Source of the DNA: Pseudomonas aeruginosa
GTDB lineage: Bacteria > Pseudomonadota > Gammaproteobacteria > Pseudomonadales > Pseudomonadaceae
Direction: 5' to 3'
NCBI RefSeq assembly: GCF_001457615.1
Contig: NZ_LN831024.1
Span: 1,554,773 to 1,594,772, forward strand
Length of the DNA stretch: 40,000 nucleotides
Shown piece by piece: positions 1 to 9,104 of the stretch. A program made the position numbers and the translations under genes. The notes under the pieces were generated by a model that was given only the letters and a program-made list of their open reading frames with translations, ran no database searches and was not told the origin of the DNA. Numbering within the stretch: the stretch's first letter is position 1; each line of letters starts with the position of its first letter.

Positions 1-345
1 GCGGCGAAGAACGCGATCCTGATCGTCGAGTTCGCCCGCACGCTGGAGGCCGAGGGCGCCCGTGCGCTGGAGGCGGTGGTCGAGGCTTGCCGCCTGCGCC
101 TGCGGCCGATCCTGATGACCTCGCTGGCGTTCATCGCCGGCGTGGTGCCGTTGGTCATGGCCAGCGGCGCCGGAGCGGAAATGCGCCAGGCCATGGGCGT
201 CGCGGTATTCGCCGGGATGCTCGGGGTGACGCTGTTCGGCCTGTTCCTCACGCCAGTGTTCTACGTACTGGTACGGGCACTGGCGGCGCGCCTGGAGCGA
301 CGCGCCGGCGGCAGCCTGGCGCATCTGGAGGGAGGCCGTCCATGA
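1..345 (+). CDS. mexQ: RND multidrug efflux inner-membrane transporter, C-terminal fragment (5' end outside window)
   Basis: Frame 1 reads AAKNAILIVEFA..., the conserved AcrB/Mex C-terminal region followed by TM helices. The stop TGA at 343-345 overlaps the next gene's ATG (ATGA). Synteny with opmE supports the call. Confidence 0.85.
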   Translation, partial: AAKNAILIVEFARTLEAEGARALEAVVEACRLRLRPILMTSLAFIAGVVPLVMASGAGAEMRQAMGVAVFAGMLGVTLFGLFLTPVFYVLVRALAARLERRAGGSLAHLEGGRP

Positions 346-1817
346 AGCCATACCTGCGGTCTTCGTTGAGCGCGCTGATCCTGCTGGGCGGCTGTGCCGC
401 GGTGGGGCCCGACTATGCGCCGCCGAGCGCGTCCGCACCGGCCAGCTTCGGCGCGATGCCGGCGGGTATCGATGGCGGTGGCGTGGAGATCGAGTGGTGG
501 CGCGGGTTCGACGAGCCAGACCTGGAGTCTCTGATCCAGCGGGCGCTCGCGGCGAACCTCGACATCGCCCTTGCCGGCGCGCGCCTGGACGAAGCGAAGG
601 CGCTGCTGCGCGAGAACCGCGAAGAGTTCCTGCCGCGCGGCGGCCCGGCGTTCGATTACCAGGCCCGGCGGCGCGGCGAGGTGGAAACACCGGCCGGCCA
701 GCAGCGCGACATCGAGACCTATCGCGGCGCGCTGGATGCTTCCTGGGAAATCGACCTGTTCGGCCGGGTGCGGCGCTCGGTGGAGGCCGCCGAGGCGCAG
801 GCGGGCTCGCGCGAGGCCCTGCTGCGCAACGTGCAGGCGAGCGTCGCGGCTACGGTTGCCATGACCTGGTTCCAGCTACAGGGCATCGAGGCCGAACTTG
901 CGGTGGTCCATGACATCGCCGGCAACCAGCGCGACAGCCTGGAGATGGTCGAACGCCTGGTCAGCGCCGGCTCCGCCCACGAGTTCGACCGGTTGCGCGC
1001 CGAAGCGTTATTGCACAACGTCGAGGCGGCCGTGCCCGACCTCGAACGGCGCCGCGCCGCCACCCGCAATGCGCTGGCCGTTCTCCTTGCGGAAGCCCCG
1101 CAGGCCTTCAGCCCGCCGGTCGCCCGTGCCTCCGGGGAAAGGCTGACGCTCCGCACCCTCGGGGTCGGCGACCCGGCGGGACTGCTGGCGCGTCGCGCCG
1201 ACATCGCCGCGGCCGAACGCAACCTGGCGGCCGCGACCGCACGTATCGGCGTCGAGACCGCGGGGCTGTATCCGCAGGTCGAGGTACGCGGCTCGATCGG
1301 CCTGGTCGCCGGCAATCTCGATGCTTTGGACGAGAGTGGTACGTCCTTCAACGTCCTGAACCCGGTGATTCGCTGGGCGTTACTCGACCGCGGTCGCGTG
1401 CGGGCGCGGATCGCCGCCAGCGAGGCCCGTGCGCAGGAGGCATTGATCCTCTACGACCGGACGGTGCTGCGCGCCCTGCAGGAGACCGATGATGCCTTCA
1501 ACGGCTATGGCGCTGCCGCTGACAGGCTCCGCCTGCGCCTGCTCGAGGCGACGGCCAATCGCGAGGCGGCGCGCCTGGCCCGGGAACGCTTCGTCCAGGG
1601 GGACGGCGAGTACCTGGACGTGCTCGAGGCGGAACGCTCGGACTACCTCAGCCGGCGCGCATTGAGCATCGCGCGCACCGAGCAGCGCCTTGCCGTCGTG
1701 GGTATCTACAAGGCGCTGGGTGGTGGCTGGGAAGCCTGCGCGGGGGCGCGGCGCTGTGGCGTGGCTACCGACGATACCTCTCCAGGCGTGGCACGGCAGC
1801 GCGACAGTCGCTCCTGA
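342..1817 (+). CDS. opmE: Outer-membrane efflux lipoprotein, NodT/OprM family (491 aa)
   Basis: N-terminus MKPYLRSSLSALILLGGC carries a lipobox. The protein has the two-repeat OMF architecture and its start overlaps the mexQ stop. The longer track ORF starting at 87 is an out-of-context extension. Confidence 0.9.
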   Translation: MKPYLRSSLSALILLGGCAAVGPDYAPPSASAPASFGAMPAGIDGGGVEIEWWRGFDEPDLESLIQRALAANLDIALAGARLDEAKALLRENREEFLPRGGPAFDYQARRRGEVETPAGQQRDIETYRGALDASWEIDLFGRVRRSVEAAEAQAGSREALLRNVQASVAATVAMTWFQLQGIEAELAVVHDIAGNQRDSLEMVERLVSAGSAHEFDRLRAEALLHNVEAAVPDLERRRAATRNALAVLLAEAPQAFSPPVARASGERLTLRTLGVGDPAGLLARRADIAAAERNLAAATARIGVETAGLYPQVEVRGSIGLVAGNLDALDESGTSFNVLNPVIRWALLDRGRVRARIAASEARAQEALILYDRTVLRALQETDDAFNGYGAAADRLRLRLLEATANREAARLARERFVQGDGEYLDVLEAERSDYLSRRALSIARTEQRLAVVGIYKALGGGWEACAGARRCGVATDDTSPGVARQRDSRS

Positions 1818-1823
1818 TCAGCC

Positions 1824-1850
1824 GCCGGCGGTTTCCGGCCGCCGGCCTTC
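1824..1850 (+). terminator. GC-rich hairpin just after the opmE stop (possible terminator)
   Basis: GCCGGCGG (1824-1831) pairs with CCGCCGGC (1839-1846) around a 7-nt loop. Only a weak T run (CTTC) follows. Confidence 0.35.
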
Positions 1851-2352
1851 GCTCGACTGCCTGGGTCGAGGGCCGTGCGGCGCGTCCTCCGGTTATTTGG
1901 CGAACCCCGGGAGTACGGATTGCCTGGCGCGGATCGCTCGTCCCTGTCCGCCTTATCGATAAGTCGGTTCCGAACTCTTTTTCGGTAGTTCATTCAGATG
2001 GATGAGTGAAGAGGGCAGATGGAAAGTATCTGCTCGGGACTTCAATGTTCAGAAGAGTGGGGAAGTATTACTTTCTCATTGTTCTTCAGGTACGTTCCGG
2101 CTGCCCGCCGTTTCTTATTGAACGAGGTCACTCCTGTGCCTCTGCGCTCGCGCCGCACGGAGACGTCGAATACATATCGTCGAGAGGTTCTTCAGTGGTG
2201 AGTGGAGCTGGCTGAGGCGGTATCTCGGTTGCCTGGCGGAGTTGTTCTATATGTTCGTTCTTGGCTTTGCCCGTTGTTTGAAGTTTGCGGAATAACCTCT
2301 GGAACTATTCATATGAATTTTTGAAAGTTTGGTTTACCTGAGAGATTTATGA

Positions 2353-2383
2353 GTTGACCTTGTCACGATGGCAGGACTCATGG
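2353..2383 (+). promoter_or_regulatory. MerR/CueR-type promoter-operator upstream of the copper chaperone gene
   Basis: TTGACC -35 (2353-2358), a 19-bp spacer with an imperfect dyad, and CATGGT as -10. It is 23/31 identical to the element at 2944-2974 and ends about 31 nt before the ATG. Confidence 0.6.
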
Positions 2384-2414
2384 TTCGCAGGAGTCAACAA
2401 ACCAGGAGGTTGCG

Positions 2415-2609
2415 ATGTTTTCTTTCCATATTCCGAACATGACCTGCGGCGGTTGTGCCAAGACTGTCACCCGTATCCTGCACGGCGTCGATCCCCAGGC
2501 GCGCGTAGAGACCGATCCCCCTCGGCGCGAGGCTAGGGTCGAGAGCACTCTGGACAAGCACGCATTCCTCGAGGCGTTGAGCGAGGCCGGTTATCCGGAG
2601 GGCCGTTGA
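2415..2609 (+). CDS. copZ1: HMA-domain copper chaperone (64 aa)
   Basis: MTCGGC metal-binding motif (MxCxxC) at residues 9-14, ferredoxin-like HMA length, and AGGAGG RBS at 2404-2409. Position matches PA3520. Confidence 0.9.
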   Translation: MFSFHIPNMTCGGCAKTVTRILHGVDPQARVETDPPRREARVESTLDKHAFLEALSEAGYPEGR

Positions 2610-2943
2610 GTGCATGGGCATGACGCAGGCGTAGGGTCGGATAGTAGCGTTTCGCCCAGTGCCGGCAATAGGAAAATGATTTTCATTGAAGTCTGCGCGC
2701 CATATGCCATCAATGGCGCTTGGCTATTGTGGAAAGAACGCTTTGGAATTTGTAAATCAATATTTCAGTCGGCCGCGAGGTGACAGTTATGTGAACGGAA
2801 AGAGGCGCTGACAGGAAACCCTAAAAGTTATTCTCCGATGGATTCGCAGGCCTTTAGCTCGGGGTTTTTCGCAGCGCATCCAGTGTTATCGAAGAGCACC
2901 TTTCGGCGAACTCCGTTGTCCGCCGAGAAGGCCGCTGCATTGC

Positions 2944-2974
2944 TTGACCTTGCCACCGTGGCAAGCTTTACGGT
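2944..2974 (+). promoter_or_regulatory. MerR/CueR-type promoter-operator of the 5-gene biosynthetic operon
   Basis: TTGACC -35 (2944-2949), 19-bp spacer, TACGGT -10. A perfect dyad CTTGCCAC-C-GTGGCAAG (2949-2965) lies inside the spacer, as in CueR/MerR operators. Confidence 0.7.
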
Positions 2975-3009
2975 CGCCCCGCACAACAACAAAAACAAGG
3001 GTGATCCAA

Positions 3010-4047
3010 ATGACTTCAAATCCGTTACAGCAATGCTGCAGTTCTTCCTCCGATATGAATATCCGTTCCCAGCGGACAATGTCGGAACCTGCCCGAAATG
3101 CATCGGCTCTCCTGGCTGAAGCCTTGAAACCCGGTGCCTCCCTGGACCAGATCACGCTCGCGCTCGAGGCGATTCTCGCGGTCACGGCCAAAGGCCTGGG
3201 CGGCGATGCTTCGGCTTACGCGCAGTACCAGGCGTTGCTCCTGGAACTGCACGTAGGCAGCGATCCGCATACGGAGCCGACCCGCCGCTGGATGGCGAGC
3301 CAGGTCTACCTGGTCGAGGATCGTTTCGCTCCCGAGCCGGCCGGTTTCAGCGCCGTCCCGGTGGAGGAGTTCCGCAAGAAGGTCGACGCCGAGATCGAGG
3401 CGCGCAGCCGGGTGCGCCATCCCATGTCGGTCCACCTGTTCCAGGGCACGCCGCCGGTCGAGGACGTGCGCTTCTTCCTGGAACACCATTGGGTCCGTTC
3501 CTACAACTTCTACAGCCTCCTGGCGGAGCTGGCCTTCCGCTTCGAAAACATCGAGGACGCCTCGGTGTTCTACCGCAACCTCTACGGCGAGGCCGGGGCG
3601 GAGACGCCGGAGCGCTCGCACCCCGCGTTGCTGTCCCACCTGATGACCTACTTCGACATTCCGCTGCGCATCGATTTCCCGGCGCTGCATCCGCTGGAGA
3701 AGGCCTACCTCAACAACCGTATCCGTTGCGTGCGGCACACCGATGTCGCCTGGGGCCTTGCGCTCCTGTACGCGGTCGAGTCGGTGAGCTGCGTCAACCA
3801 CCGGCGCATCTACGAACTCCTGCAGCGCCTGGGCGTGCCCGAGCAACCCAGCGAGTTCCATCGCCTGCACGGCACCCAGGACGAGATCGATACCGAGGAG
3901 ATGTGGGCGCTGATCGCCAAGTTCGCGCCGAGCGAAGACTTCCAGCGCCAGTTCATGCAGTCGCTGGCGCGCCACTTCGAAATCAACCGGGCCTACTTCG
4001 ACCTGCTCTGGGAGCAGATGCAGGCGAATTCCCTGGCCATGGCCTGA
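3010..4047 (+). CDS. flcE: Heme-oxygenase-like diiron oxidase/oxygenase (HDO) family protein, paralog 1 (345 aa)
   Basis: Helical protein with dispersed E/H ligand patterns (YGEAG..ERSHP, AVES, HRLHG..DEID), reminiscent of TenA/PqqC/CADD-like iron enzymes. RBS AAGGGTG lies before the ATG at 3010. Paralogous to the next gene; position matches PA3519. The gene-letter assignment is from memory. Confidence 0.8.
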   Translation: MTSNPLQQCCSSSSDMNIRSQRTMSEPARNASALLAEALKPGASLDQITLALEAILAVTAKGLGGDASAYAQYQALLLELHVGSDPHTEPTRRWMASQVYLVEDRFAPEPAGFSAVPVEEFRKKVDAEIEARSRVRHPMSVHLFQGTPPVEDVRFFLEHHWVRSYNFYSLLAELAFRFENIEDASVFYRNLYGEAGAETPERSHPALLSHLMTYFDIPLRIDFPALHPLEKAYLNNRIRCVRHTDVAWGLALLYAVESVSCVNHRRIYELLQRLGVPEQPSEFHRLHGTQDEIDTEEMWALIAKFAPSEDFQRQFMQSLARHFEINRAYFDLLWEQMQANSLAMA

Positions 4048-4079
4048 TGCCTATCCAGAACAAGAACAAGGAGTACAGG

Positions 4080-5066
4080 ATGAATACCCGCAATTTTTCC
4101 CTGCCGCAGTTGCAGAACCTGCCCATCGAAGAAGCACGCATCGTTGCCGATGCGCTGGCCGTCCACGCTACTTCCCGCCAGATCGATAGCGCCGCGAGCA
4201 AGCTGGCCGCGCTGGCCGAGGCAGGGCTCAAGGGCGACCGCCAGGCCTATGCCGCGTACCAGCAGTTGCTCTACGTCCTTTCGTTGAGCGACGACGTGGC
4301 GACCGCCCAGACCCGGCGCTGGCTGGCCCGGGCGATCTATCGCGTCGAAGAGCGTTTCATGCCCGCCGCCGATCTTTCCAGGGCGTTGTCCGAGGAGGAT
4401 TTCCAGAAGCGACTCGAACAGGAAATCGCCGCGCAGTCCCGCGAGCGGCACCCGATGTCGCAGTACGTGTTCTCCGGCTCGGCCTCCCGCGCGCAGCTCC
4501 AGGTGTTCCTCCGTCACCAGTGGTTCCGCACCTTCCGCCTGTACCGCGATGCGGCCGACCTGTTGGTCAACCTGACCGATGTGGACGAGGCCGCGGCGCT
4601 CGCGCGTTACCTCTATGGCGAGTTGGGCGAGGAAGACGAAAAGGGTTCGCATCCGCGCCTGCTGGCCAAGCTGCTCGAGGCCATCGGCCTTGAGGCGGAC
4701 TTCCAGGCCGTGTCGACGATGCCCGAGGAAATCGCCTACCTGAACAATCGCGCCCGTGCCTTCCGGCATGCCGAGGTCGGTTGGGGGCTGGCGGTGTTCT
4801 ACATCACCGAACTGGTCGTGCCGGGGAACCACGAAAAGCTCTATCGGGCCCTGCTCCAGGCCGGCCTGAGCGAGGACCAGGCGGAGTACTACAAGGTCCA
4901 CATCAGCCTCGTACCGCCGCGGGCCAAGCGCGAATGGCAACTCATCGCGCGGCGGATTCCGGACGTGCAGTTCCAGAATGCGTTCCTGACCTCGCTATCG
5001 CAGCACTTCCGTGTGGAAAGGGCCTATTACGACGCGATCTGGGAAGAGATGCAGAGCGTCAAGTGA
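4080..5066 (+). CDS. flcD: Heme-oxygenase-like diiron oxidase/oxygenase (HDO) family protein, paralog 2 (328 aa)
   Basis: Collinear similarity to 3010-4047: RHPMSQYVF vs RHPMSVHLF, YGELGEEDEKGSHPRLL vs YGEAGAETPERSHPALL, AYLNNRARAFRH vs AYLNNRIRCVRH. AAGGAG RBS at 4068-4073. Confidence 0.8.
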   Translation: MNTRNFSLPQLQNLPIEEARIVADALAVHATSRQIDSAASKLAALAEAGLKGDRQAYAAYQQLLYVLSLSDDVATAQTRRWLARAIYRVEERFMPAADLSRALSEEDFQKRLEQEIAAQSRERHPMSQYVFSGSASRAQLQVFLRHQWFRTFRLYRDAADLLVNLTDVDEAAALARYLYGELGEEDEKGSHPRLLAKLLEAIGLEADFQAVSTMPEEIAYLNNRARAFRHAEVGWGLAVFYITELVVPGNHEKLYRALLQAGLSEDQAEYYKVHISLVPPRAKREWQLIARRIPDVQFQNAFLTSLSQHFRVERAYYDAIWEEMQSVK

Positions 5067-5096
5067 CTTCCACCGGGACAAAGCGAGCACTCGAAA

Positions 5097-6530
5097 ATGC
5101 CAAGTCACATTACGGAATCCCGTATACACGGGGGCGCCTACTCGTCCCCGGCATTCGCCGCGATCTTTTCCGATACCAACCAGGTGCGGAGGTGGCTGGA
5201 TGTCGAGCGAGCCTTGGCGGCGACCCAGGCCGAGATGGGCATCATCCCCCACGAGGCGGCGCGGGAGATCGACCGCGCCGCCCAGGTGGAGCGCTTCGAC
5301 CTCACCCAACTGGGCCGCGAAAGCCTGGAGACAGGGCACCTACTGGTGCCTACCATCCGCGCCCTGGCGAGGTCGTGCGAGGGTAGCTGGGGGGAGTACG
5401 TGCACTATGGCGTGACCACCCAGGACATCCTCGACACCGGGCTGATGCTGCAGGTCAAGGAAGCCTGGGGCCATGCGCTCGGGCTCCTGCACTCGATCCG
5501 TGGCCATCTGCTGGCGCTTGCCCTGCGCCACCAGCACACGCCGATGGTTGCACGCACCCACGGGCAGCAGGCGCTGCCCACGACCTTCGGCTACAAGGTC
5601 GCCGTCTGGGTGGATGAAATCGACCGTCACCTGGCGCGCTTCGACGAAGCGCGCGAACGCGTCCTGGTCGGCAACCTGACCGGTGCCGTGGGAACCCTGG
5701 CGTCGTTCGGCGCCCAGGGCTTCGAGCTACAGCGGCGAACCCTGGCCAGGCTTGGCCTCGGCGCGCCGTCGACCAGTTGGCACAGCGCCCGGGACCGGGT
5801 GCTGGAGGTTGCCGGGTTGCTGGTCCAGGTGTCGGTGACGCTGGGCCGGGTGGCGAACGAGATCTACCACCTGCAGCGCAGCGAAATCGACGAGGTACGC
5901 GAGGGCAGCCGGCCGGGACAGGTGGGCAGCAGCACCATGCCGCACAAGCGGAACCCGTCGTCGGTCGACCTGGTCAGCGCGCTGTCGCGGCTGGTGCGGG
6001 CACAGATGGTGGCGCTCACCGATGCCGCGTTCCAGTTGCACGAGCGCGACGGCACCGCCTGGCGCATCGAGTGGGCGGCGTTGCCGGAGCTGTTCGTCTA
6101 CGCCGGCGCCTTGCTGACCCGCATGGAGGCGGTGCTGGCCGAGGGGCTCGAGGTGCGCGAGGAACGCATGCGCGCCAACCTCGACCTGCTGGGTGGGCTG
6201 ATCCTGTCGGAGCGGGTCATGCTCGCGCTGGCGGGGCAGTTCGGCAAGCAGACCGCCCACGAACTGCTCCATGAGATAACCCAGGCCTCCCAGCGGCAGG
6301 GCGTTCCGTTCCGCGAGGCGCTGCTCGGGCAGCCAAGGTTGCGCGGCTGTTTCAGCGCCGAGGCGCTCGAAGAACTGCTCGACCCCGTCGGCTACGTCGG
6401 CCTCGCCGCGGAGATGGTCGACCTGGTCGCCGGCAAACCACGAACCGGCGCGTCGGGCGACAGGCCCGAAGGCGCCGCCTCTTCCCAAGGAAATCCCGGT
6501 CAGTCCCAGTACGTGATGGAGGATAGGTGA
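5097..6530 (+). CDS. flcC: Fumarate-lyase superfamily enzyme (adenylosuccinate lyase / 3-carboxymuconate cycloisomerase-like), paralog 1 (477 aa)
   Basis: Superfamily signature GSSTMPHKRNP is present, with a conserved N-terminal block WLDVERALA..Q. Position matches PA3517. Confidence 0.85.
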   Translation: MPSHITESRIHGGAYSSPAFAAIFSDTNQVRRWLDVERALAATQAEMGIIPHEAAREIDRAAQVERFDLTQLGRESLETGHLLVPTIRALARSCEGSWGEYVHYGVTTQDILDTGLMLQVKEAWGHALGLLHSIRGHLLALALRHQHTPMVARTHGQQALPTTFGYKVAVWVDEIDRHLARFDEARERVLVGNLTGAVGTLASFGAQGFELQRRTLARLGLGAPSTSWHSARDRVLEVAGLLVQVSVTLGRVANEIYHLQRSEIDEVREGSRPGQVGSSTMPHKRNPSSVDLVSALSRLVRAQMVALTDAAFQLHERDGTAWRIEWAALPELFVYAGALLTRMEAVLAEGLEVREERMRANLDLLGGLILSERVMLALAGQFGKQTAHELLHEITQASQRQGVPFREALLGQPRLRGCFSAEALEELLDPVGYVGLAAEMVDLVAGKPRTGASGDRPEGAASSQGNPGQSQYVMEDR

Positions 6531-7981
6531 TGGATGCTGAATCGCTGGAAATGCTTGCCCGTTCCTCGTGCACCGCGCATCCGCAGAGCTTCGGCGGCGC
6601 ACCGGCCGAGTCGTCCTGCAAGCACGAACACAGTCACATCGTTGACTCTAAAACCCATGGCGGCGGCTACGCCGGTCCGGTGAGCCGCCGGATCTTCTGT
6701 AGCCACTGCCGCCTGCAACGCTGGCTCGACGTGGAGGCGGCGCTGGCGCTGGCGCAGGCCGATGTCGGCGTCATTCCGCCCGAGGCGGCGCTGGAGATCG
6801 CGAAGGCCGCCAGGCTTTCGGCCGTCGACCTGCAGCAGATCGCCGACGGCGTGGCCAGCACCGGGCACTCGCTGATGCCCCTGCTGGGCGCGCTGCAAAG
6901 GAACTGCAGCCCCAGCGCGCGCGAGTACGTGCATTTCGGCGCGACCACGCAGGATATCCAGGACACCGCGCAGTCCCTGGAAATGCGCGATGTGCTGGAT
7001 GAAACGGAGCGGGCGCTGGACATCCTCCTGGACCGGCTCTCGGTGCTGGCGAGCGGGACCCGCAATGCGCTGATGGTCGCCAGGACCCACTCGATCCCGG
7101 CGTTGCCAACCACCTTCGGGCTGAAGGTGGCCGGCTGGATCGACGAGTTGCTGCGTCACCGCGAACGCCTGGGCGAGGCGCGCAAGCGGATCCTGGTGGT
7201 GCAACTGTTCGGCGGCGTGGGCACGATGGCCGCCTTCGGCGACGAGGCCATGCTCCTGCTCGAAAGCTTCGCGCGGCGGCTGTCGCTGGACGTGCCGCTG
7301 GCGGGTTGGCACGTGTCCCGCGACCGGGTTACCGAGTTCGTCAGCACCCTGGCCATGGTCACCGCGTCCCTGGCGCGGATCGCCGACGAGATCCGCACCC
7401 TGAACCGCTGGGAGATCGGCGAGCTGGAGGTGGGCTGGACGCAGCAGCAGATCGGTAGCAGCACCATGCCCCACAAGCGCAATCCGGAAGGCTGCGAGCA
7501 GGTCGTGGTGCTGGCCCGGCTGGCCAAGGCCCAGGTCCTGCTCGCGTTGGACGCCATGATCCTCGAGCACGAGCGGGACTACCGCGGCACGCGCCTGGAA
7601 TGGTGTGCGGTGGCGGACGTTTCCCACTATGCGCTGATGGCGCTGTCGCTGCTGACCGACACCATCGACGGGCTCACGGTCCACGACGAGACCATGGCGC
7701 GGACGGCGAATGCATACAGCGATGCGATCTGTACCGAGGCGTTCGTCTTCGAGATGGCCAAGCAACTGGGCAAGAGCAGCGCTTACGAAATCATCTTCGA
7801 GATCACCCAGGCCTGCCAGCGCAAGCGGATTCCGATGCGCCAGGCGCTCGAGTCGGATCCGCGGGTGGGCGCCGTCATGCCGAAGGAAACCCTGGCCAGG
7901 CTGTTCGAGCCGCGGACCCATCTCGGCATGGCCGGGACCATCGTCGACAAGGTGCTGGACAAGGTCGCCAGCCACCACTGA
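6527..7981 (+). CDS. flcB: Fumarate-lyase superfamily enzyme, paralog 2, with Cys/His-containing N-terminal extension
   Basis: GSSTMPHKRNP signature. The start (GTG 6527 or ATG 6530) overlaps the upstream stop TGA at 6528-6530. About 33 extra N-terminal residues relative to the paralog include SSC...SSCKHEHSH. Confidence 0.85.
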   Translation: MMDAESLEMLARSSCTAHPQSFGGAPAESSCKHEHSHIVDSKTHGGGYAGPVSRRIFCSHCRLQRWLDVEAALALAQADVGVIPPEAALEIAKAARLSAVDLQQIADGVASTGHSLMPLLGALQRNCSPSAREYVHFGATTQDIQDTAQSLEMRDVLDETERALDILLDRLSVLASGTRNALMVARTHSIPALPTTFGLKVAGWIDELLRHRERLGEARKRILVVQLFGGVGTMAAFGDEAMLLLESFARRLSLDVPLAGWHVSRDRVTEFVSTLAMVTASLARIADEIRTLNRWEIGELEVGWTQQQIGSSTMPHKRNPEGCEQVVVLARLAKAQVLLALDAMILEHERDYRGTRLEWCAVADVSHYALMALSLLTDTIDGLTVHDETMARTANAYSDAICTEAFVFEMAKQLGKSSAYEIIFEITQACQRKRIPMRQALESDPRVGAVMPKETLARLFEPRTHLGMAGTIVDKVLDKVASHH

Positions 7982-8030
7982 ATCACCCGCCGCCAGAGGC
8001 GGCGGTACTGCACATCAACGGAGAACAAGA

Positions 8031-9104
8031 ATGACAAAGGCTAACGAGATCGAAACCGCGAAGGTCAAGCAGTTTTCAGCACGGATCATGGAGGACTACG
8101 GCAATACCCTGCGCGGCGCGATGCTCTACATCGGCGACCGCCTGGGGCTGTTCAAGGCGCTCGCCCATGGCCAATGGGTGACCCTGGAAGAGCTGGCGCA
8201 GCAGACCGGCTACACCACCCGCTACCTGCGCGAATGGCTGGGCAGCATGGTCACCGGCAACTACCTGGCCTACGATCCGCAGAGCAGGAGCTATCGGTTG
8301 CCGGCCGAGTTCGTCCCGGTGCTCGCCGACGAGGACTCGCCTTATTTCGCCGGCGGGATCATCCAGTTGAGCGTGCCCTTCGTGAGCATGGCGCCGAAGA
8401 TCATCGAGGCCTTCCGCTGCGGCGGCGGTTGCCCCGAGGAATCCTTCCCGCTGGAAACCTGGGAAGGCATGGAGCGCATGACCATGCCCTGGTACAAGCA
8501 CTTCCTCGTGCAGCACTGGATTCCTTCGCTGGATGGCGTCAAGGAAAAGCTCCAGGCGGGTGGCAGCGTGCTCGATTTCGGCTGCGGCAGCGGGCTGGCC
8601 GCGATCATGATGGCCAAGGCGTTCCCCGAAGCCCAGGTCTATGGCTGTGACTTCCACGCGCCGTCCATCGAACGCGCGCGGGCGAACGCCGAGGCCGCGG
8701 GGGTCGGCGACCGGGTGCGCTTCGAGGTCAGCGATTCCGATGCGCTGGCGGGCAAGAAGTTCGACTTCGTCACGACCTTCGTGGTCATCCACGACGCGAC
8801 CGACCCGCAGCAGATGATGAAGGACCTGCGCGAGTCGACCGCCGACGATGGGACCTACCTGATGGTGGAACTCAACCTGTCGCAGGAACTGCACGAGAAC
8901 ATGAACCTGTTCGGTCGCGTGATGTACCCGCAGAGCACGCTGTATTGCATGACCTGTTCGCTGTCCCACGGCGGCGAGGGCCTCGGCGCCTTCATGGGCG
9001 AGGACCGCGCGCGGCAGATGGCCGAGGCCGCCGGCTTCAGTCGCTTCCGCAAGGTGCCTTCGGAGTGGCCGCCGCTGCCGGCGCTGTTCGAACTGCGACC
9101 CTGA
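8031..9104 (+). CDS. flcA: Class I SAM-dependent methyltransferase with N-terminal winged-helix-like domain (357 aa)
   Basis: Motif I VLDFGCGSG and an acidic motif-II-like GCDFH. RBS GGAGAA lies before the ATG at 8031. The upstream part of the track ORF (7710-8030) overlaps flcB and was rejected. Confidence 0.85.
   Translation: MTKANEIETAKVKQFSARIMEDYGNTLRGAMLYIGDRLGLFKALAHGQWVTLEELAQQTGYTTRYLREWLGSMVTGNYLAYDPQSRSYRLPAEFVPVLADEDSPYFAGGIIQLSVPFVSMAPKIIEAFRCGGGCPEESFPLETWEGMERMTMPWYKHFLVQHWIPSLDGVKEKLQAGGSVLDFGCGSGLAAIMMAKAFPEAQVYGCDFHAPSIERARANAEAAGVGDRVRFEVSDSDALAGKKFDFVTTFVVIHDATDPQQMMKDLRESTADDGTYLMVELNLSQELHENMNLFGRVMYPQSTLYCMTCSLSHGGEGLGAFMGEDRARQMAEAAGFSRFRKVPSEWPPLPALFELRP

Follow-up and report, generated by a model that had tools for sequence, protein, structure and literature searches.

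The question raised by this Pseudomonas aeruginosa locus is why two similar 31-bp segments stand 590 bp apart, each shortly before a gene start, and what regulator they have in common. The window, meaning the whole stretch of 40,000 nucleotides that was analysed, covers positions 1,554,773-1,594,772 of a 6.32-Mb P. aeruginosa genome with 66.5% GC. With a probability of roughly 95%, the two segments are CueR-activated core promoters, one for the copper chaperone gene copZ1 and the other for the operon flcEDCBA, and they are two of five such sites. The bases of this reading are the promoter architecture, the five-site family, the presence of CueR, conservation and the transcription starts, each of them found here or in cited data. 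The binding and activation of both promoters by CueR are taken from the literature, by way of papers that cite Thaden et al. 2010.

The segments were located by exact-string search and agree in 23 of their 31 positions. This reproduces both the distance and the identity given by an earlier sequence-only reading, which had also placed the second copy correctly at 2944-2974. Its position for the first copy, 2353-2383, was one base too low. Both segments contain a -35 element of TTGACC and a 19-bp spacer, followed by a -10 element of CATGGT in copZ1 and TACGGT in flc, in agreement with the xAxGGT form described before. The gap to the start codon is 30 nt for copZ1 (ATG at 2415) and 35 nt for flc (ATG at 3010), where about 30-36 nt had been claimed. 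The flc segment comprises the perfect 8-1-8 dyad of the earlier description, CTTGCCAC c GTGGCAAG, with all eight pairs matched, and the copZ1 segment has a degenerate dyad with five of eight pairs matched in the same register. The likeness is confined to the 31 bp, as the 60-bp flanks compared in register give 6-10 matches per 31 positions, which is the random level. A 22-nt degenerate pattern covering both segments matches nowhere else in the window, also when two mismatches are tolerated, and its chance expectation over 100 shuffles is 0.00. A generic promoter scan with a spacer of 16-18 bp found nothing in 1750-3100.

The gene order around the segments corresponds to the P. aeruginosa arrangement of opmE, copZ1 (PA3520) and flcEDCBA (PA3519-15), the last being the operon for the antibiotic fluopsin C (Table 1). 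The copZ1 protein carries the MTCGGC motif. The flc operon has been identified and described as CueR-controlled (PMC13653836). The opmE-copZ1 spacer at 1818-2180 is AT-rich and indel-polymorphic among P. aeruginosa assemblies, and an 88-aa ORF called there by some pipelines is unsupported.

Table 1. Features of the opmE-copZ1-flc region, in window coordinates; transcription starts are carried over from strain PA14.
Feature	Position	Strand	Details
Outer-membrane efflux protein (opmE)	342-1817		
LasR (las-rhl) box CTGAGAGATTTATGAG	2338-2353	+	maps exactly to the sequence in Wurtzel 2012 Table S4
PcopZ1 (PA3520), CueR/MerR-type promoter	2354-2384	+	-35 2354-2359, dyad centre 2367, -10 2379-2384
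copZ1 transcription start (G)	2391	+	7 nt past -10, 24 nt before ATG
copZ1 (PA3520), 64-aa HMA-domain Cu(I) chaperone	2415-2609	+	Pfam HMA, E = 5e-10
Pflc (PA3519-15), CueR/MerR-type promoter	2944-2974	+	-35 2944-2949, dyad 2949-2965, -10 2969-2974
flc operon transcription start (G)	2981	+	7 nt past -10, 29 nt before ATG
flcE-D-C-B-A (PA3519-PA3515), fluopsin C biosynthesis operon	3010-9104	+	Pfam and NCBIfam matches
Heme-oxygenase-like oxidases (two), flc operon	3010-4047, 4080-5066	+	
Fumarate-lyase-family enzymes (two), flc operon	5097-6530, 6527-7981	+	
Methyltransferase, flc operon	8031-9104	+	

Published 5' ends from strain PA14 place a transcription start behind each segment (Wurtzel et al. 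2012, PMC3460626). In PA14 coordinates, the PA3520 start is at 1620663 with the ORF start at 1620687, and the PA3519 start is at 1621253 with the ORF start at 1621282. The data come from LB cultures with no added copper and are carried to this strain by identical spacing. Since PA14 and the window agree in the copZ1 gene length (195 nt) and in the start-to-start distance of the two genes (595 nt), the starts map to the two G residues in Table 1. Each lies 7 nt past the last T of its -10 element, which argues for two independent promoters using these elements. The proposed -10 hexamers, for which incompatible start sites had been named as the refuting observation, are thus compatible with the published starts. 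The proposal that the chaperone and the biosynthetic operon form separate transcription units likewise agrees with the distinct starts before the two ATGs. The supplement of a PAO1 dRNA-seq paper has no entry for copZ1 or the flc genes. Further PA14 5' ends fall inside the flc operon, at window positions 4053, in the 32-nt flcE-flcD gap, and 8012, which is 19 nt before flcA (Wurtzel et al. 2012, PMC3460626); they may stand for promoters within the operon or for processing sites.

It is highly improbable that copZ1 and flc are expressed as one PcopZ1 transcript, with the second site serving only as an internal roadblock or booster for CueR. A scan of 1750-3100 detected no intrinsic terminator in the 334 bp between copZ1 and flc, so that part of the transcription from PcopZ1 may continue into flc. 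However, an independent 5' end is mapped where the flc -10 element predicts it, and the operator of the flc site is the better one and comes with a full -35 and -10. The stretch from the flc site to its ATG is also almost 100% conserved in the sister species G014, and other genera retain the flc promoter also at loci in which copZ and flc are separated by another gene. Two CueR-activated promoters, each with its own start, remain the preferred reading.

Both 31-mers are identical in all 10 of the other P. aeruginosa assemblies compared, and the surrounding spacers in the same assemblies contain SNPs, with additional indels upstream of about 2180. Of 33 further species in the genus, G014 alone has flc, with FlcE 92% identical. 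The flc site of this species differs only in the dyad-centre base, and its copZ1 site is kept with a better dyad (7/8). Both promoter sites form conserved islands in G014. In a second genus, flc occurs in 3 of 130 sampled genomes with FlcE at 78-83% identity, and all three loci have TTGACC, a 19-bp spacer and TAnnnT upstream of flc. A copZ1-like gene is present in the fetched upstream flank of two of these three loci, or three of four when G014 is included. The distribution of flc is patchy (loci L005 and L018-L020).

The sequence-only reading had treated the segments as two copies of one promoter. The shared architecture stands, and the pair belongs to a larger regulon of five sites. A genome scan with TTGACCTT-N11-AAGG gives three perfect matches besides the copZ1 and flc sites. 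The copA1 site precedes the gene for a 792-aa HMA P-type ATPase, the copZ2 site precedes the gene for a 65-aa HMA protein, and the mexP site, which lies upstream of the window at a distance of about 4 kb, precedes the gene for a 385-aa RND adaptor. All five sites (copA1, copZ2, mexPQ-opmE, copZ1 and flc) comprise TTGACC and a 19-bp spacer. A 25-nt weight matrix built from the copA1, copZ2 and mexP sites only was run against both strands of the 6.3-Mb genome, and its best new matches are flc (30.6 bits) and copZ1 (23.4 bits). The next unrelated match scores 14.1 bits, the other matches above this value being reverse-strand readings of the same palindromes, and the matrix scan found no sixth CueR-type site of comparable score in the genome. 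The genome-wide regulon search proposed earlier thus recovers the five-site family, with copZ1 and flc on top of the new matches.

Pairwise identities over 31 positions are 23 for copZ1-flc, 23 for copZ1-copA1 and 26 for copA1-copZ2, and copZ1 and flc hence resemble each other no more than they resemble the other family members. Of 11 dyad positions, 10 match in copZ2, 9 in flc, 8 in copA1, 8 in mexP and 5 in copZ1, so that the CueR-register inverted repeat of the CCTTnn-N7-nnAAGG type is clear in flc and weak in copZ1. The -10 element ending in GGT is common to copZ1 and flc and absent from the other three.

The genome contains a single CueR equivalog at 5404613-5404990, which scores 177.5 bits against TIGR02044 (cut-off 147.4). 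Its closest solved structures are those of E. coli CueR (1q05, 4wlw and 6ldi; phmmer E = 1e-34), and the protein ends with the metal loop CQGDHRPDC. The other MerR paralogues of the genome score below the TIGR02044 cut-off. PMC7122816 and PMC8872213 state, with reference to Thaden et al. 2010, that five promoters are bound directly and activated by CueR; the 11 genes behind them are PA3515-19, PA3520, mexPQ-opmE, PA3574.1 and cueA. PA4778 is CueR, the regulator to which the literature assigns the five sites. One sensor for both segments, as the sequence-only reading had it, is consistent with the single equivalog and with the CueR binding that these papers report at PA3520 and PA3519-15.

It is very unlikely that the sites serve as operators for a MerR-family paralogue other than CueR, for example one like ZntR, CadR or SoxR. 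The genome has at least eight further MerR-family matches, and a TTGACC element with a long spacer is common throughout the family. In contrast, the five sites share a dyad of the CCTTG-N-CAAGG type that resembles the E. coli CueR box CCTTCC-N7-GGAAGG, all five precede copper genes, and the literature assigns them to PA4778. Several paralogues also have distinct dyad promoters of their own: at genome positions 2423764, 3304051, 5519984 and 5811659, TTGACC long-spacer dyads lie each beside a different MerR-family gene and do not resemble the CueR box, an illustration that the paralogues have specific operators. Origin as a locally duplicated segment or repeat, alike by descent and with no common regulatory role, is rejected as very improbable: the short distance of 590 bp and the shared GGT ending of the -10 element speak for it, whereas the likeness stops exactly at 31 bp within random flanks, copZ1 is equally similar to the distant copA1 site, starts are mapped 7 nt past each -10, and both sites are conserved across strains and species. 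CueR control of two separate core promoters accounts for the pair.

The sequence-only reading had further suggested that the two dyads differ in affinity for the same sensor. In PMC12833586, the affinity of CueR is reported to differ among the five promoters and to track the length of continuous dyad symmetry, with copZ2 the highest (33 nM) and mexPQ-opmE the second lowest (146 nM). By the counting rule of that paper, the continuous dyad measures 10 bp in copZ2, 8 in copA1, 7 in flc, 2 in mexP and 2 in copZ1. The affinity rank of the copZ1 and flc promoters can be inferred from these lengths: flc would rank high, and copZ1 is probably the weakest of the five, as it belongs to the shortest dyad class. 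The near-perfect flc dyad and the degenerate copZ1 dyad suggest that the occupancy by CueR and the output probably differ between the two. The mexP operator at genome 1550713 reads TTGACCTTACC... in this strain, with A at position 9; the corresponding base of the PAO1 oligonucleotide in PMC12833586 is G, and the already poor dyad thereby loses one more pair.

Both segments are sigma-70 promoters of the MerR class, with a good -35 element (TTGACC) and a weak -10 element 19 bp apart. This spacing is 2 bp too long and leaves the hexamers out of phase, and the spacer houses the operator dyad of CueR (PA4778), the Cu(I) sensor. By analogy with E. coli CueR, and given the homology of the regulators and the identical architecture, CueR carrying Cu(I) would kink and undertwist the spacer, by which RNA polymerase could engage both hexamers; transcription begins 7 nt past the -10 element. 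E. coli CueR is reported to bend and undertwist DNA with a 19-bp spacer and so to realign the hexamers, and the inverted repeat of E. coli PcopA shares 3 bp with the -35 element and stops 2 bp short of the -10 element (PMC8169799). Both sites have the register of PcopA, including the 2 bp from box to -10, and share with it TTGACC and the 19-bp spacer (PDB 4WLW, 6LDI, 6XH7), which agrees with the MerR-family type claimed at the outset. The operator half-sites differ, being CCTTG(a/c)C in P. aeruginosa and CCTTCC in E. coli PcopA. The regulon comprises five promoters in P. aeruginosa and two in E. coli, and in P. aeruginosa it extends to the fluopsin C biosynthetic operon and to an RND pump. The mer operator-promoter of Tn501/Tn21, the archetype for MerR, likewise has a long-spacer sigma-70 promoter, metal-dependent DNA distortion and a dyad in the spacer, but the metal, the dyad sequence and the regulator are different. 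MerR of Tn501/Tn21 is encoded divergently beside its target, whereas P. aeruginosa cueR is about 3.8 Mb away.

The copZ1 promoter has further reported inputs. The LasR box directly adjoins the copZ1 -35 element and is conserved in G014; Wurtzel 2012 Table S4 (PMC3460626) lists it at -53 to -38 of the PA3520 start in PA14, with validation by EMSA only. From this position beside the -35 element, copZ1 looks like a composite quorum-sensing and copper promoter. FleQ is also reported to bind the PA3520 promoter (PMC6610081).

The copZ1-flc spacer contains several conserved elements. A Fur-box-like 19-mer, GAAAATGATTTTCATTGAA, at 2672-2690 matches the Fur consensus at 14 of 19 positions, and at 15 of 19 in G014. 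A match of 14/19 or better occurs at only 51 positions of the 6.3-Mb genome. The element has no SNPs in 10 strains and is absent from the flc loci of the second genus. An inverted repeat, GCCAT-ca-ATGGC, is conserved at about 2700-2716, and the 17-mer TTGTAAATCAATATTTC at 2750-2766 is unique in the genome; 16 of its 17 positions are kept in G014 (L005), and likewise in L019, which is from another genus. An Rfam search of 1700-3100 gave no match, and no conserved ORF was found in the copZ1-flc spacer. FlcD and FlcE are iron-dependent enzymes. It is rather doubtful that the conserved elements are a second, undescribed input to flc, such as iron via Fur, or the mark of an unannotated transcript. 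The Wurtzel supplements list no ncRNA in either spacer, and no literature link of PA3520 or PA3519 to Fur or iron regulation was found.

The closest known system is the P. aeruginosa CueR (PA4778) regulon of Thaden, Lory and Gardner (2010, J Bacteriol 192:2557), which agrees in organism, in genes and in the set of five promoters with 11 genes. As that regulon is described in the citing papers, the two sites show no substantive difference from its promoters PPA3520 and PPA3519-15. The finding is thus already known, since about 2010, and as all of it is in the literature, nothing is new beyond small side observations. The sequence-only reading nevertheless recovered the true architecture of a metal-sensor regulon. 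By way of five CueR promoters, efflux, chaperoning and the synthesis of a copper-binding metabolite respond to a single cytoplasmic copper signal.
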